A DNA stretch of 56,948 bases from a virus. Its lineage: Duplodnaviria > Caudoviricetes. Below the pieces are notes generated by a model. The model searched no databases and was not told the DNA's origin. It saw nothing but the letters and a program-made list of their open reading frames with translations. The translations under genes and the position numbers were made by a program. Below are positions 3,302 to 56,909 of the stretch, piece by piece. Each line of letters begins with the position of its first letter. Position 1 is the first letter of the stretch. The DNA is taken from positions 1 to 56,948 of the IMG/VR virus record IMGVR_UViG_3300037502_002662; one strand, written 5' to 3'.

Positions 3302-3781
3302 ATGGTATTTAATGTAGACGAATTAGAGGCTATACAAGCATACCTACAGGAGCTTGTAGATAAATACTCACCAGAAAAAATAGACCTTGTATGTTTAGGT
3401 ACCACAAGAATTGTAGGTGACTCTGTAGGACCTCTTATAGGTACTTCTATAAATCCAAAAAAGAAATTAAATATTATAGGCACAGTGTCCAAACCTATTT
3501 ATAGAAAAAACTACCATAAACGTATACAAGATAAAAGAAATGATGCATTATGCATTGCTATTGATGCATGTATAAGTGATGAATATAAAATTGGTACAAT
3601 TATAATAGAAGAAGTACCTCTTAAACCCGGCGCTGGTGTAGTAGACACACCTACAGAGGTTGGTGATATATCTATAAAATGTATTGTAGGTAGTAATTTA
3701 GATCAAGTAATAAATGCAGATTATATAAAAATCTATGAAATAGCTTATAATATAAGTACTATTATAAATAATATTTTTTGA
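3302..3781 (+). CDS. yyaC: YyaC/DUF1256-like spore protease (Gpr-like aspartic protease)
   Basis: CLGTTRIVGDSVGPLIGT, IIGT..P, IAIDAC, IGTI, PLKPGAGV, VGDISIKCIV resemble YyaC motifs. Confidence 0.85.
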   Translation: MVFNVDELEAIQAYLQELVDKYSPEKIDLVCLGTTRIVGDSVGPLIGTSINPKKKLNIIGTVSKPIYRKNYHKRIQDKRNDALCIAIDACISDEYKIGTIIIEEVPLKPGAGVVDTPTEVGDISIKCIVGSNLDQVINADYIKIYEIAYNISTIINNIF

Positions 3782-3970
3782 TACTTTTGATACTTTTGAT
3801 ACTTTTGATACTTTTGATACTTTTGATACATTATTTTTATTTTCTCACTCAAAAAAAATTTTTTAATATTATGTAGGTACCCACAAAAATATCTTTTTAA
3901 ATTTTTATTATAAGTAGGTAAAATGTGTAGCAAAAGTAACAAAGGTAGCAAAAGTAGCAAAGTAGCGAAA
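3776..3970. repeat. Inverted 9-bp repeat arrays: (TTTTGATAC)x6 and ~(GTAGCAAAA)x5 flanking an AT-rich core
   Basis: Arrays read directly at 3776-3829 and 3927-3970. Confidence 0.9.
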
Positions 3971-4129
3971 AATTAAGAAGTATTCTAAAGTAAAATAATA
4001 TCAATTTTTGTAGAAAATTCGTGGAGAAAATTCGTGGAGAAAATTTTAAAAAATTACTTATAATAATGTTACTTTTATAGTATAATATAAATGAAGAAAA
4101 AATTAAAAATTTTTAAGGAGGTACAAATT

Positions 4130-4444
4130 ATGGTTGAAACTTATGAAGCTACTATTGTTTGTCCACATTGCGGTGGAGAAGTTCTTATTGAAAGGGATTT
4201 GCCTAAAAGAAGAGGTATGTTAGCAGGAAAGACACTTGAAGAAATGACTGATGAAGAATTAAAGATTGAAATCAGAAATGCAAAGTCAGCTCTTTACAAA
4301 GCGCAACAAAAAAATGCTAATGAAGAAACTATTTTAAGAAATAAAGTTAGGGTTGAAGCTGCTTTAGCTGAAAGAGAGAAAAGAGAAGCTGCTAAAAAAG
4401 AAGCGGAAGTAGAAGAAGCGGAAGTAGAAGAAGCGGAAATGTAA
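4130..4444 (+). CDS. Hypothetical protein: CPHC knuckle, helical domain, acidic EAEVE repeats
   Basis: AAGGAGG RBS before ATG 4130; promoter-like TTACTT-N21-TATAAT upstream. Confidence 0.75.
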   Translation: MVETYEATIVCPHCGGEVLIERDLPKRRGMLAGKTLEEMTDEELKIEIRNAKSALYKAQQKNANEETILRNKVRVEAALAEREKREAAKKEAEVEEAEVEEAEM

Positions 4445-4447
4445 TAT

Positions 4448-4470
4448 AAAGCCCGATATATCGGGCTTTT
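4448..4470 (+). terminator. Terminator
   Basis: AAAGCCCGAT-ATCGGGCTTTT. Confidence 0.8.
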
Positions 4471-4474
4471 ATGT

Positions 4475-4516
4475 GGGAGGAGAGGCTGTGATGTAGGTTC
4501 AACTCCTACACCTCCC
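4475..4516 (+). ncRNA. tRNA-like minihelix (acceptor stem plus T-arm only)
   Basis: GGGAGG...GTAGG-TTCAACT-CCTAC-A-CCTCCC; no D or anticodon arms. Confidence 0.55.
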
Positions 4517-4752
4517 TGCTTAATTTTTGTACATCATTTTGTTCAACCCCCTTTGTATATGGCACCTTATATTATGGTGCCGCCTTATTTCCTTTTTAAG
4601 TGCTATTAGAGTGTCTATAATAATAATAATAATAAAGCTTTGTAGGCATTCTAATAACATTTAAAATTATTTTTAACCTAATGTTTTAAAAATTTTTAAA
4701 ATAAGGAGGTGTACTTTTAAAATTACAAAATTACAAAGGGGGCAGTTACAAA

Positions 4753-5034
4753 GTGAAACAACAAAAGTTTGTAGAATTGTATTGTGATGAGCAGGACGGT
4801 TTATGGAAACTCACAGTTTGGACAATACCTACAAAAGATTTCGACCCATTTGAGTGTGACTTTAAGAACTTAGACTATAAAAGCCCACACATACATAAGG
4901 CTACACGAGAACAAAGACGTATTGCTAAAAAATATCGCGAACAAGGTTATAAAGTACATACTAATACAGCAAACAAAGATAGTTATTTTCAAATAGTACC
5001 TAAATGGATTGTAGAATTAATAAAAGGAGGTTAA
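4753..5034 (+). CDS. Hypothetical protein
   Basis: ORF with AAAGGGGG RBS. Confidence 0.7.
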   Translation: MKQQKFVELYCDEQDGLWKLTVWTIPTKDFDPFECDFKNLDYKSPHIHKATREQRRIAKKYREQGYKVHTNTANKDSYFQIVPKWIVELIKGG

Positions 5035-5036
5035 AG

Positions 5037-5255
5037 ATGAGTAAAGCCACAGAATATCACTATTATAGCGACGGATATCTTTTTATAAAGCATTCTACTA
5101 GGCCTGAAAATGGCACAATAAATGTTTACAAAATAATTGTAGATAGAGAAGGTAATGTACATCTTAATGAGAGATTTTTATTTAACATTTACGGTATAGG
5201 TAGTTATGATGAATTTGTAATGTATTGTAAAGAATATAGTAAGCTTGAATGGTAA
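5037..5255 (+). CDS. Hypothetical protein
   Basis: AAGGAGG RBS, ATG at 5037. Confidence 0.7.
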   Translation: MSKATEYHYYSDGYLFIKHSTRPENGTINVYKIIVDREGNVHLNERFLFNIYGIGSYDEFVMYCKEYSKLEW

Positions 5256-6937
5256 AGGGGGACAAGCTTATAGCTAAACTACTATTCAACCATAGGTATA
5301 TTGAAATTGTTTGTAATAAAAATGATATTGAATCAAGACATTTAGCTAGTAAGATACCTTACGTTCATAGTAATAGAACAAAGACTAAATTTAAAACTAC
5401 TATAAGAAATATAGACTTAGTATTGAAATTATTCAGGAATATCAATAATTTGCAAGAATTAAAGTCAGCTAATGCTCCTAAAAAGATTGTAGATTTATAT
5501 ACTAAAGAATTCAATAGAAGAACAACTACACAGTTTCTAATAAATAATGGACCGCAGCAACACAATGGATGGTTATGGACACATCAACAATTAGGCAGAG
5601 AAATAGCACAGTATAATGATAGATTTGCTTTCTTTTATGATACTAGAACTGGTAAAACACCTATGAGTTTACAGATAATAGCAGATGACATTGAAAAGAA
5701 TCCTACACATAAATGGTTAGTTTTATGTCCATTAATTCTTATAGAAAATGCTTGGTTAGAAGATGCTAAAACATTTTTTCCAGACTTAAAAGTAGTTAAC
5801 TTACATGATAAAACTAAAGCTCGTAGGTTGAAAAAATTTAAACGGGATGCAGATGTATATATTACAAATATAGAGTCTTTTGTAAATTATAAGAAACATA
5901 TAGAGCAATTATCGATAAAAGGCTGTTTTGTAGATGAGTCTTCTACAATGAAAAGCCATAAGTCTAAATTTGCTAAAGCAGCTGTAGATTATAGTCAAAA
6001 AATTAATAGATGGTACCTTCTTTCAGGAACCCCAGCGCCTAATGGTGAATGGGAATATTACAGACAATTACAGTCGATTGATTATTACGGTGTACATAAA
6101 TCATGGACACAGTTTAAAAATTACTTTTTTAATAATATTTCTTATAATCCACAATTTGAAAAGTTACAAATAAAACCTGAAAAAAGAGATGAACTTTTAG
6201 GCCTGTTACGGAGATACTCATTATATGTAGACAAGGAAGATGTACTTACAACACCTGGAATGGACTTTATTGTATATGAGGTAACTATGCCTGACAAACT
6301 TAGAAAGCAATATGATGAATTGCGTAGAAAGCTTTATCTAGAAGTAGAAAAAGAAGGAGGTGAACTAGCTCTAATAACCGCATTATCTACAGGAGCTAAA
6401 TTTAATAAACTTAATCAAGTTACATCTGGGTTCATAATTGATACTGAGGAAGAACAAACGTATCTATTATCAGATTATAAGTTTAAAGCCTTAGATAAAA
6501 TACTTCACAATATTGGAGATAACCAAGCAATAATATGGGCAAATTATCATAAAGAGTTTGAGTTAATAAATAAAAGATATCCCGGTAAATGTGGCTTAGT
6601 ATATGGTAAAATACCTTTTGAAGAGAAAAATAAAAACATACAGGATTTTAAGCAAGGTAAACTACAATATCTTGTGGCTAACCCAGCTTCTGCGGATAAG
6701 GGTTTAACACTTACTAATGCGCATTTTAGTATTTACTTTAGTTTAAATTATAGTTATGAATTATGGAAGCAATCTGTAGACCGTATATATGGAGATATAA
6801 GTAAACAAAAGCATAAATGTATATATTATGTTATAGTGGCTAAAGGCACTATTGATAAAACAATCTATAATACAATAAAGAATAAAGGATCTATGAGTAC
6901 TGCGGTGCTAGATCACTTAAAAGGAGAAACTTTTTAG
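5249..6937 (+). CDS. SNF2-family (SF2) helicase
   Basis: DTRTGKT, VDESS, LLSGTP, GLTLTNA, QSVDRIY. Confidence 0.9.
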   Translation: MVKGDKLIAKLLFNHRYIEIVCNKNDIESRHLASKIPYVHSNRTKTKFKTTIRNIDLVLKLFRNINNLQELKSANAPKKIVDLYTKEFNRRTTTQFLINNGPQQHNGWLWTHQQLGREIAQYNDRFAFFYDTRTGKTPMSLQIIADDIEKNPTHKWLVLCPLILIENAWLEDAKTFFPDLKVVNLHDKTKARRLKKFKRDADVYITNIESFVNYKKHIEQLSIKGCFVDESSTMKSHKSKFAKAAVDYSQKINRWYLLSGTPAPNGEWEYYRQLQSIDYYGVHKSWTQFKNYFFNNISYNPQFEKLQIKPEKRDELLGLLRRYSLYVDKEDVLTTPGMDFIVYEVTMPDKLRKQYDELRRKLYLEVEKEGGELALITALSTGAKFNKLNQVTSGFIIDTEEEQTYLLSDYKFKALDKILHNIGDNQAIIWANYHKEFELINKRYPGKCGLVYGKIPFEEKNKNIQDFKQGKLQYLVANPASADKGLTLTNAHFSIYFSLNYSYELWKQSVDRIYGDISKQKHKCIYYVIVAKGTIDKTIYNTIKNKGSMSTAVLDHLKGETF

Positions 6938-23146: not shown

Positions 23147-23231
23147 ATAATTTTATTTATTATATGTTATAATATAAATAGAAGGAAAAAATTTAAAATT
23201 TCAAATCAAAAAATTAAGGGGGGTGAACAAA

Positions 23232-23438
23232 ATGGCTATGAAAGCCACCATGTGGTCAATAATTTACAATGAAAAAACAGATGAAGCATGTACAGCAAAA
23301 GCTAATACGTATAATTTAACATTAAAAGACTAAATGATTTATTTCCAGAGCACAGTACAACTTGTATTATGTGTTCTACTAAAGAACCTACAAAAAGAGC
23401 AAATTAAAAGAATTGTTAGGAGGTGTAATAAATGGTAA
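23232..23438 (+). pseudogene. Small gene broken by two A-run frameshifts
   Basis: Promoter and RBS, MAMKATMW..LK then RLNDLFPE..KEPTK then EQIKRIVRR in shifted frames. Confidence 0.5.
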
Positions 23439-26215: not shown

Positions 26216-26232
26216 TTTTAAAATAACCCTTA

Positions 26233-26320
26233 TACGTGTCCGTGATAAAATTAATAGTACTATAATATTAATAAGGTTATCACGGACACGTAAAATTTAA
26301 AATAAGCATGTTACGTGTTA
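26233..26320. repeat. Dispersed palindromic element, copy 3
   Basis: TACGTGTCCGTGATA-N30-TATCACGGACACGTA perfect 15-bp arms. Confidence 0.85.
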
Positions 26321-26356
26321 TCTATGAGTATAATAATATGTATAATAATTATATTA

Positions 26357-26418
26357 GCTTAATGCGGCCTGTAGATTTTCTACAGACGGTCCCAAGCCCG
26401 TGTAAACGCAGAGGGAGC
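26357..26418 (+). ncRNA. Twister ribozyme (type P1, with P3 hairpin)
   Basis: GCU U^A A UGCG GC CUGUAGA-UUU-UCUACAG ACGG UCCC AAGC CCGU GUAAA CGCA GAGGG AGC. Confidence 0.9.
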
Positions 26419-26442
26419 ATACAATACATAAGGAGGTATTCT

Positions 26443-32074: not shown

Positions 32075-32860
32075 TTATTTGGATACCAACATCTCCCTAA
32101 TTTTACTAAGTATTTCTTTACTATCTGAAGCCTTTAGTTTTTCAACATTGATTGTAGTTAACATATTTTCGATTTCTTTTTGTTTTTCTAATGCTTCAGC
32201 AGCTTTTGGATTACCGCTGTCTCTAAGCGTTTTCAATTGTTCTTCAACTTCAAGTAACTTTTTGTACCTTTCACTATTAGGGTCAAAGTCAGCTTTTGAT
32301 TTCATTATGGACTTTTTGGATTGAATATTTCTGATTGCCTTCCTTAATTTTTCTTGGTCGTTAGCTAACTCTTGGAGTTCATCTTCAGTATATTCTACTG
32401 TAGATCTTTTTGGACCACCACTTTTAGACTTAGGCTTGTCCGCAGCGATTCTAAGTAAATTTTCTGCAATCGCTGCTGTTACAAGCTTTTTATAGTTATC
32501 GATTGTCATTGTTTTTGATTTTGTGCGACTTCTTTTTGATTGTTGGCTCTTAATCATTCTGTCGATTTCATCATCCGTTGCTTGTTTTAGAAATTCAACG
32601 TCAACTTCTTGTAAGTTAGTAACTTGTGATATTAATTCATCCATAGCGTCATGTGATTTTTTACTTTCTTCAACCTTTGATTGATACTTTTCAACATCAG
32701 TAGCTATTTTGTTTAACACATCGTTTGCAACTTCTTCACTGGTAGCTACTAATTGTGCTGTGTAGGTCAACGACCTACCAGCTGTACTTTGCTGCTTGCC
32801 TCCTTCAGCAAAAAGTCCTTTCAAGTTGTTTTTGTTTGACATCATTTTACCAACCTCCAC
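32075..32860 (-). CDS. Basic helical hypothetical protein with two IxxxQSK repeats
   Basis: IKSQQSKRS and IRNIQSKKS; GGAGG RBS; promoter at 32904-32938. Confidence 0.85.
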   Translation of the reverse strand: MEVGKMMSNKNNLKGLFAEGGKQQSTAGRSLTYTAQLVATSEEVANDVLNKIATDVEKYQSKVEESKKSHDAMDELISQVTNLQEVDVEFLKQATDDEIDRMIKSQQSKRSRTKSKTMTIDNYKKLVTAAIAENLLRIAADKPKSKSGGPKRSTVEYTEDELQELANDQEKLRKAIRNIQSKKSIMKSKADFDPNSERYKKLLEVEEQLKTLRDSGNPKAAEALEKQKEIENMLTTINVEKLKASDSKEILSKIREMLVSK

Positions 32861-33742: not shown

Positions 33743-33892
33743 CCATTAGTGGCTACTTTCTTTTTTTACTTTTTATGCGGCAGCTGATGGTAATGCTAAA
33801 CCGTTTTATAGCAATTGCTTAGCCCAATCAAAGCTTTTATGGTGTTGCGTAGTCTTAACCAATCGACGCTGATTACAGAATATTTAAAATGT

Positions 33893-34150
33893 TTAGAATA
33901 TTCTGACAATTTTGAAGACTCGAAGTACTTAGAATATTCTGACAATTTCGAAGACTCGAAGTACTTAGAATATTCTGACAATTTCGAAGACTCGCGTTGT
34001 GTGACAATTGATTTGGCTGATCGAGGCCGCATAGCATTCATTAGGTAAATTGTCAGAATATTCTGACAATTTTGAAGACACGCATTACCAGAAAAGTGAA
34101 GGCTCGCATTACCAGAATATACATAATATTCTGAATATTCTGACAATTCA
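33893..34150. repeat. 36-bp tandem repeat (~2.8x) and GAATATTCTGACAATT family, including a 26-bp perfect palindrome at 34047-34072
   Basis: TTAGAATATTCTGACAATTTCGAAGACTCGAAGTAC; AAATTGTCAGAATATTCTGACAATTT. Confidence 0.9.
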
Positions 34151-34217: not shown

Positions 34218-34319
34218 CTATTTCATTAACCTCTTCATTCTATTTAAACCTTTGAAGGTAGGCTCTATACTCATTTCTTTACATATCCTTAAGTACAATC
34301 TTAAAATCTTTATGTTCAT
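34218..34319 (-). CDS. 33-aa basic peptide (absent from ORF track)
   Basis: AAGGGGG RBS; MNIKILRLYLRICKEMSIEPTFKGLNRMKRLMK. Confidence 0.65.
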   Translation of the reverse strand: MNIKILRLYLRICKEMSIEPTFKGLNRMKRLMK

Positions 34320-34352
34320 TTGTTCAACCCCCTTGATTTGATGAGTTAAACC

Positions 34353-34868: not shown

Positions 34869-35029
34869 TTGTAATCCCTCCTTATTTAATTTTTAAAAGT
34901 TTATTTATTATTTGTTCTAGTTATATTATACCACAAATTAATAAAAATTATAACCATTTTTTTAATTTAGGCAAAAAATTTTTGATTTAAAAAATTTGTT
35001 TAGAAGTTTGAATATTTAAAATATTTTTA

Positions 35030-35225
35030 AAATTATGAATATTATAAATATTATGAATATATATAAAATATTTTAAATATTATGAATATATAAAAAATTT
35101 TAAATATTATGAATATTATGAATATTATGAATATTTAGAATATTCTGAAAATTTAAAATATTCTGAAAATTTAAAATATTCATAATAGTCCAAAAATTAC
35201 GAAAATTTTGAATATTCTGACAACT
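35030..35225. repeat. 9/18-bp AATATT-based repeat array upstream of terS
   Basis: (AATATTATG)n, AATATTCTGAAAATTTA x2, GAATATTCTGACAA. Confidence 0.85.

Positions 35226-56771: not shown

Positions 56772-56909
<138 letters not shown>

Follow-up and report, generated by a model that had tools for sequence, protein, structure and literature searches.

The window, by which we mean the whole stretch of DNA analysed, is the complete IMG/VR virus record IMGVR_UViG_3300037502_002662, comprising 56,948 bases of an uncultured phage with an estimated completeness of 96%. The element described here occupies the first early intergenic region of this phage, where a small gene ending at 4444 is followed by two small genes and then by the helicase gene. 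It combines what appears to be the remnant of a transfer RNA (tRNA) gene with a C-rich tract that can pair with a Shine-Dalgarno (SD) sequence, a series of hairpins and the start region of the gene at 4753. Nearly all genes are carried by the + strand, which is strongly purine-skewed (G+C ~30–35%), with the few minus-strand genes lying at 32–35 kilobases (kb). The features of the locus are as follows, with their coordinates in the window.

4130–4444, + strand: small zinc (Zn)-ribbon early gene (CPHC), the conserved anchor upstream of the tRNA island
4448–4469, no strand assigned: perfect palindrome of 11+11 nucleotides (nt), a terminator-like hairpin flanked by an A-run and a T-run
4475–4517, + strand: most probably a tRNA-Ser relic with an internal deletion; acceptor halves 4475–4481 and 4510–4516, T-arm 4493–4509, discriminator 4517, no CCA
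4516–4557, + strand: left arm of the predicted long-range pairing (anti-start region), with a C-rich anti-SD core at 4547–4557
4561–4581, + strand: GGCACC/GGTGCC hairpin with a 9-nt loop, −11.5 kcal/mol, z = −3.1
4580–4590, + strand: second C-rich tract, complementary at 10 of 11 positions to 4699–4709
4594–4666, + strand: hairpin of 27 positions with a (TAA)n loop
4699–4709, + strand: SD-like AAATAAGGAGG not followed by a usable start codon, the partner of 4580–4590
4732–4774, + strand: right arm of the predicted long-range pairing, holding the SD (4735–4742), the GTG start (4753–4755) and the first codons
4753–5034, + strand: gene of 93 amino acids whose start region is predicted to be masked by the pairing; one homologue at 56% identity, no PHROG match
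5037–5255, + strand: small gene with an AAGGAGG SD that abuts the stop codon of 4753–5034; its open reading frame (ORF) is listed as 5004–5255

Homology and synteny with related phages show where the first part of this element comes from. Relatives were retrieved with the helicase protein, yielding four syntenic loci at ~68% identity, and through an alignment of the Zn-ribbon protein, yielding 31 viral and 29 metagenome loci, several of which are the same contig present in both collections. In the near clade, we observe the gene order Zn-ribbon gene, hairpin(s), tRNA(s), helicase module, with ARAGORN identifying an intact type-II tRNA-Ser at the syntenic site in loci L006/L012 (anticodon GCT) and L008/L014 (anticodon ACT). 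The same island contains called tRNA genes in 16 of the 60 loci (31 genes in total), and in distant clades the Zn-ribbon gene is followed by tRNA-Met, -Asn, -Arg, -Ala or -Leu. The occurrence of tRNA genes of so many identities after the same gene indicates that the site is a family-wide tRNA island. We therefore assign 4475–4517, with high confidence on comparative grounds, to an internally deleted tRNA-Ser gene; the view of an earlier note, made from the letters of the window alone, that a tRNA-derived element lies here on the + strand is borne out by this synteny and by the homology to the tRNA-Ser of relatives. As a side observation, the tRNA-Ser of L008/L014 has an A at position 34 and is otherwise near-identical to the gene of L006/L012.

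Among the 22 near-clade rows examined, 17 hold the element, four are contigs that stop short of the site and one (L043) lacks it. The 17 element-bearing rows reduce to 14 distinct sequences, two of them full length and 12 truncated, with the truncated forms ranging from 46 nt (acceptor, variable arm and T-arm) down to 25–26 nt, where a loop-closed acceptor stem is left. All 12 retain at least five of the seven acceptor pairs (eight keep seven, three keep six and one keeps five), the T-arm is kept in four and the CCA in seven; these pairs were tabulated by script, a MAFFT alignment of the 14 forms having misplaced the 5' acceptor halves across the deletions. By eye, short repeats such as AGGT are seen at the deletion junctions, pointing to microhomology deletions, and it is events of this type that appear to have taken the D and anticodon arms from the window element and left its variable arm in ruins. 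The window itself belongs to the series, as a 42-nt form, next to 11 other internally deleted versions in relatives.

Compared by eye with the full-length gene of L014, the window matches at five of seven positions in the acceptor 5' strand, six of seven in the 3' strand and six of seven in the T-loop, with the same discriminator. Covariation in related phages had been proposed as a check by the earlier note. In the relic, three pair changes are compensated (acceptor 3:70 and two in the T-stem), and G-U intermediates occur in other relatives. The C-rich tract itself lies in a segment that has no counterpart in relatives. What remains of the variable arm in the window is apparently the 5' strand of its stem, scrambled and unpaired. 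In a tree of the Zn-ribbon gene the window sits on a branch of ~1 substitution per site, compared with end branches of ≤0.12 in the near clade. A literature search found, among the matches listed, no paper describing the reduction of phage tRNA genes to minihelices, a result that does not establish the absence of such work.

The structure itself is present at 4475–4517 as the earlier note had described it, namely an acceptor stem and a T-arm with neither D nor anticodon arm. Positions 4475–4480 form six Watson-Crick pairs with 4511–4516, followed by an A.A mismatch between 4481 and 4510 (position 7:66), and the T-arm consists of a perfect stem of five base pairs (bp) (4493–4497/4505–4509) closed by the loop TTCAACT. 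The discriminator position is U4517, CCA is absent, and just 11 nt separate the acceptor 5' strand from the T-stem. The suggested check with ARAGORN turned out negative, with 0 tRNA genes and no transfer-messenger RNA (tmRNA) in the window, and with the Rfam tRNA model the element scores 15.9 and 14.9 bits, short of the gathering score of 29. A functional tRNA gene is ruled out by these two results and by the missing D and anticodon arms, and a tmRNA-like reading was rejected on the lack of a tmRNA call. We also rejected the idea of an attP core carrying a tRNA 3' fragment, since the element has both of its acceptor halves, the tRNA of relatives at this site is whole, and no integrase is found among the 20 proteins (out of 87 ORFs of at least 80 amino acids) that were scanned against PHROG.

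Taken as a bare motif, the minihelix is weakly beyond chance, and its reality rests on homology. Under strict Watson-Crick pairing such a minihelix arises in 4 of 500 Markov-shuffled genomes; when G-U pairs are allowed and at least six of seven acceptor pairs are asked for, it arises in 138 of 300. Folded alone, the 43-mer reaches z = −1.45, with 15 of 200 shuffles at least as stable. The exact 24-nt pattern of T-arm and acceptor has no match in the viral_contigs collection.

Downstream of the relic, the complementarity between 4516–4557 and 4732–4774 is directly observed and extends over four helices of 4, 9, 9 and 11 pairs, giving 33 pairs of which 30 are Watson-Crick and three are G-U. The 11-pair helix joins 4547–4557 to 4732–4742 with complementarity at all 11 positions and covers the SD of the 4753 gene, and in the next helix the CAT at 4535–4537 faces the GTG start. 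Across five contexts with lengths from 305 to 1201 nt, the helices over the SD and the start are predicted with pair probabilities of 0.86–1.0, with the outermost 9-pair helix being weaker (0.09–1.0). A duplex scan over 22,760 windows of 50 nt on both strands identifies this cis site as the best non-self partner of 4516–4562, at −38.7 kcal/mol against a background mean of −10.3 (standard deviation 4.2). Folding of 4471–4775 gives −100.3 kcal/mol on the + strand (z = −8.3) versus −78.0 on the minus strand.

The two hairpins that the earlier note had reported within this segment are both there. The GGCACC/GGUGCC hairpin occupies 4561–4581, and the pair count of the long hairpin at 4594–4666 agrees with the description of 27 bp in which four of five imperfections are G-U on the + strand: we count 22 Watson-Crick pairs, four G-U pairs and one C.A mismatch. 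Its fold is also strand-asymmetric, with −26.0 kcal/mol on the + strand versus −13.3 on the minus strand. Across the leader helices and the long hairpin together, seven of eight transition-type imperfections are G-U on the + strand. The outer and the inner pair of arms share one centre, 4644.5, so that 4516–4590 and 4699–4774 together amount to a single interrupted inverted repeat that encloses the long hairpin.

Our interpretation, which we favour with moderate confidence, is that a tRNA-Ser relic is here followed by a leader that masks the start site of the adjacent gene in cis, with no separate small RNA (sRNA) gene. Transcription, processing and an effect on translation we infer, and masking of the 4753 start on read-through transcripts is probably the most economical mechanism. 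On a + strand transcript reading through from an early promoter, the arms would pair in the four helices and bury the SD and the GTG, closing a leader of ~260 nt that would enclose both the GGCACC and the 27-bp hairpin. Such read-through RNA would then probably support only poor translation of the 4753 gene, and, as the folding models have it, the pairing should form on it whatever the origin of the repeat. Relief might come from transcripts that start inside the leader, at weak promoter-like sites near 4673–4723, or from cleavage of its double-stranded portions, with ribonuclease (RNase) III as one candidate. The tRNA relic, if still active, would offer a cut by RNase P or RNase Z that separates the upstream messenger RNA (mRNA) from the leader.

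Several observations weigh against this interpretation. Within the modelled transcript the minihelix reaches a pair probability of 0–0.2, with a competing hairpin predicted instead, and its folding energy is unexceptional. The palindrome at 4448–4469 may stop most read-through; the earlier note had called a terminator at 4448–4470, a by-eye reading of which the perfect palindrome and the T-rich tail after it stand, whereas the terminator scan of 3700–5400 flagged no site. The promoter scan returned 16 weak consensus matches, in AT-rich DNA where 8.7 ± 3.4 are expected. The segment 4518–5255 has no counterpart in any relative locus retrieved. The G-U asymmetry of 7 to 1 corresponds to p ~0.035, and the count is biased, as the folding program accepts G-U but not A.C. 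Moreover, the reverse complement of the tract matches start regions elsewhere in the window, at 16 of 16 positions for the gene at 34319, at 18 of 19 for 23216–23234 and at ~27 of 35 (by eye) for the start of the gene ending at 32860. The repeat could thus be an accident at the DNA level with no selected role.

The strongest rival builds on these last points and sees in the locus a tRNA pseudogene next to what is left of a dead minus-strand gene, or else next to a start region duplicated by accident in inverted orientation, with pairing that has no selected function; the material would have arrived with the insertion that brought the genes at 4753–5255. Read on the minus strand, the tract consists of a strong SD AAAGGGGG, a 9-nt spacing, ATG ATG and three codons before a stop, and the gene ending at 32860 likewise begins with two methionine (Met) codons. 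The earlier note had itself raised a leftover ribosome-binding site (RBS) of a minus-strand gene as the reading that could overturn its own; the close likeness to three real start regions strengthens that scenario, which stays a live rival without displacing the leader. The common centre of the arm pairs at 4644.5 would fit a single inverted duplication of ~75 nt, the tract segment is missing from all relatives, and the tRNA-Ser copies of the near clade are visibly decaying through many different deletions among close relatives. Against inert debris, the imperfections are G-U on the + strand in three of three cases in the long-range helices and in four of five in the 27-bp hairpin, and the cis site is the single best partner of the tract genome-wide. 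The pairing predicted on any read-through RNA also makes some effect on translation hard to avoid, and the relic keeps a flawless T-arm and six acceptor pairs despite the scrambled remnant of its variable arm. Only two of these points, the strand asymmetry of G-U and the rank of the cis site, separate debris from leader, and we regard debris as possible, if on the unlikely side.

It is more doubtful that the relic is still in use, that is, that the acceptor/T-arm minihelix and the 25–46-nt forms of relatives are kept by selection, a tRNA-Ser having been repeatedly miniaturised into a tRNA-like module. Such a module may recruit RNase P, RNase Z or the CCA-adding enzyme, punctuating the early transcript and freeing the masked leader, or may act as a decoy that diverts host defences aimed at the acceptor ends of tRNAs. 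The acceptor helix kept by all 12 truncated forms and their stem substitutions, all of them G-U or compensated, speak for use, as does the flawless T-arm of the window at ~1 substitution per site from the near clade, with the variable-arm remnant decayed. Against it, the near-clade genomes differ by at most 0.12 substitutions per site and show many different deletions, a picture of neutral decay still under way and too recent, it seems, for the ends of the element to have eroded. CCA is lost in five of the 12 truncated forms. The deletion in the window is undatable, and its compensated pairs may predate it, stemming from the stage of the whole gene.

The features that bear on RNase P and RNase Z are likewise divided. 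The minihelix offers 6+5 pairs, an A.A junction mismatch, a TTCAACT loop and no CCA, and it lacks the D-loop and hence the elbow, with a competing fold preferred in context. A review (PMC4810234) describes RNase P and RNase Z as clamping the elbow formed by the D- and T-loops, and RNase Z as acting on CCA-less precursors. A residual processing role for the relic is possible but unproven.

The original proposal of the earlier note, in which RNase P/Z would cut a + strand small RNA free at the minihelix and this RNA would silence or titrate the RBSs of other phage genes in trans, is improbable, despite the accuracy of its observations. The C-rich tract is indeed complementary to ribosome-binding sites, as claimed, including 18 of 19 positions at 23216–23234 and 16 of 16 at 34319–34334, the start region of the minus-strand gene, with duplex energies of −32.1 and −33.7 kcal/mol, respectively. 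In addition, AAAGGGGG occurs 17 times in the window where ~1.2 are expected (15 on the + strand and two on the minus strand, one of the latter being the C-rich tract), the 15 + strand cases being used by genes, and in many relatives the Zn-ribbon gene is closely followed by a hairpin whose apical loop is C-rich. However, that loop is absent from the loci of many other relatives, and the trans duplexes are weaker than the cis duplex and similar in score to those with any A-rich start region. The best partner of the tract turns out to be not the proposed trans targets but the SD and start of the adjacent gene, on the same strand and 175 nt downstream. With 4732–4774 included, the tract is predicted to be fully paired in cis in the full-length RNA (probability 0.86–1.0); a looped-out tract is obtained only when a 39-mer is folded in isolation, and that fold does not surpass those of shuffles (z = 0.24). 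An independent sRNA gene is likewise not supported: only 5 nt lie between the palindrome end at 4469 and the element start at 4475, with no promoter placed there by the scan, no Rfam sRNA family is matched, and the segment that carries the tract is missing from relatives. A family-wide role of a C-rich element in the + strand RNA is conceivable, and the trans model keeps a low probability.

We note that the hairpins with an anti-SD-like apical run of 4–6 C lie within the first ~250 nt after the Zn-ribbon stop in relatives such as L012, L013, L014, L019, L025, L028, L047 and L048. Alternative pairings around this C-loop hairpin, which recurs in several clades, resemble a switch.

Very improbable is a role at the DNA level, in which the AT-rich long hairpin and its flanking inverted repeats would act as a replication origin, a recombination site or a protein-binding site. 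An AT-rich region with a 27-bp inverted repeat does adjoin replication genes here, and direct repeats lie upstream (~3925–3965 and 4017–4047), but the strand-asymmetric stability speaks against such a role, the long hairpin is not conserved in relatives, and a much larger AT-rich repeat field at 33.9–35.2 kb is the better candidate for an origin or regulatory region. Least credible of all is a small minus-strand transcript from ~4564 to 4448 (a 5-codon mini-ORF, a hairpin complementary to the T-arm, a single-stranded C/U-rich stretch and the palindrome as terminator), for although there is a promoter-like site on that strand at 4599–4571, the symmetric palindrome has a T-run on either strand and the best Rfam match of the region is to Yfr1 on the minus strand (4511–4448, 29.8 bits, E = 6e-4), that match falls below the gathering score of 38 in a cyanobacterial family, the promoter-like site agrees at 9 of 12 positions in DNA that is AT-rich, folding is much weaker on the minus strand and the homologous element of relatives is a + strand tRNA gene.

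Returning to the relic and the masking leader, both find parallels among known systems. On sequence grounds, the relic is best placed in the ordinary class of decaying phage tRNA genes, with which it shares a slot that holds intact tRNAs in relatives, a homologous acceptor/T-arm and its escape from gene-finders. It differs from them in that the deletion took exactly the interior and left a minihelix with compensated pairs, and in that the forms of relatives, from 46 to 25 nt, all keep the acceptor helix. Only this deletion series and a possible selection on acceptor-stem modules stand out as unusual.

Leaders that sequester an SD and are opened by RNase III cleavage are known from lambda N and the T7 early mRNAs, and the leader proposed here would resemble them in its working. 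As in those systems, an upstream C-rich anti-SD pairs, by prediction, with a downstream SD and start, with long hairpins in between; unlike in those systems, the pairing in the window is long-range (~175 nt), consists of four helices and has a left arm that resembles an inverted copy of the start region.

tRNA-like processing modules include the mascRNA of MALAT1, the stable RNAs of the T4 tRNA cluster and the RNase P-matured CI RNA of phage P4. Lying within a longer transcript, the acceptor/T-arm fold of the window could likewise recruit RNase P or RNase Z, although, in contrast to those modules, it has no D-loop, is mismatched at 7:66 and is thermodynamically disfavoured in context. C-rich motifs that pair with SD regions are a hallmark of Firmicute sRNAs such as RsaE/RoxS. 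The window shares with them a C-run complementary to a G-rich SD, and several relatives show the run in a hairpin loop, but the window has no promoter of its own for such an RNA and no match to those Rfam families, and its tract is predicted to be paired in cis.

For annotation, this places the element as a probable tRNA-Ser relic inside a tRNA island and not as a new class of sRNA. The long-range anti-SD/anti-start leader that apparently precedes a small early gene of this uncultured phage makes for a testable regulatory unit. The natural series from full tRNA to minihelix to microhelix could show how fast phage tRNAs decay, or whether acceptor-stem modules find use after loss of the anticodon. 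Should the decay be neutral, the case is an ordinary one; should selection act on the helices, it is of relevance to signals for tRNA-like processing in the transcripts of phages.

With respect to the neighbouring genes, the Zn-ribbon ORF is listed as 4091–4444, and we set its start at the Met codon at 4130 by aligning four orthologues (60–62% identity). The 4753–5034 frame is taken to be a real gene on the basis of its 56%-identical homologue; tblastn with its protein gave no match, and it has no relatives in the viral_contigs collection. The gene at 5037–5255 has no PHROG match. In the scanned set of 20 proteins, PHROG matches comprise an endolysin/amidase, a DNA helicase (5249–6937), a sigma factor, a DNA polymerase, an HNH endonuclease and terminase subunits. 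A blastn search of 4000–5100 against cultured phages gave no match, and tblastn with the helicase gave matches that all stay below 30% identity. Among sequencing runs, one DNA run, possibly from the source sample, was listed as containing the stretch, and no RNA run was.

The sole Rfam match in the whole window is a ribozyme located elsewhere, a type-P1 twister (twister-P1) at 26356–26419 on the + strand, whose 73 bits exceed the Rfam gathering score of 67.2; a hairpin with 33-nt arms (26230–26295) lies upstream of it. At permissive thresholds, every Rfam match in 4300–4900 and 4465–4530 is sub-threshold, and those of microRNA type on the long hairpin were taken as chance.

Further elements were observed in the tRNA islands of relatives. 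A tRNA-like element of ~105 nt, found at ~527–632 in L007/L013 and also in L019, L022, L025, L029 and L055, is near-identical between two otherwise diverged clades. Besides a 7-bp acceptor-type helix it contains a type-II-like D-arm, an extra arm of great length and a T-arm with a non-canonical loop, and it is called neither by ARAGORN nor by Rfam (run on the L013 copies). A second uncalled tRNA-like element, of ~85 nt, lies downstream of the Zn-ribbon gene in L010, L011, L013, L046, L050, L053 and L054, beginning with GGGCGG and ending in a T-arm-like structure; it is truncated and fused to other relics in L041 and L043, with the L043 fusion creating a new 6-bp helix. In the CCA-less relics of the near clade (L048/L069, L051, L052 and L013), a T-rich run directly follows the acceptor hairpin, resembling an intrinsic terminator.

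Repeats are also found elsewhere in the record. A (TAA)n microsatellite occurs at 7–43, at 4620–4637 in the loop of the 27-bp hairpin and at 56823–56857, that is, at both record ends as well as in the loop, and the record ends may represent an assembly break within this repeat; L006/L012 has a complementary (ATT)n run between its two tRNA-like genes. The region at 33.9–35.2 kb (33876–34147 and 35011–35217) contains arrays of a repeated palindromic motif with GAATATTC and a 200-nt AT-rich repeat field, and sits between the minus-strand genes and the terminase genes, making it a likely regulatory or origin/packaging region. The short direct repeats at 3925–3965 and 4017–4047, upstream of the early promoter-like site, comprise a GTAGCAAA-type repeat and a 13-nt unit with ATTCGTGGAG, repeated twice, matched in relatives by a single similar copy of ATTCGTGAA.

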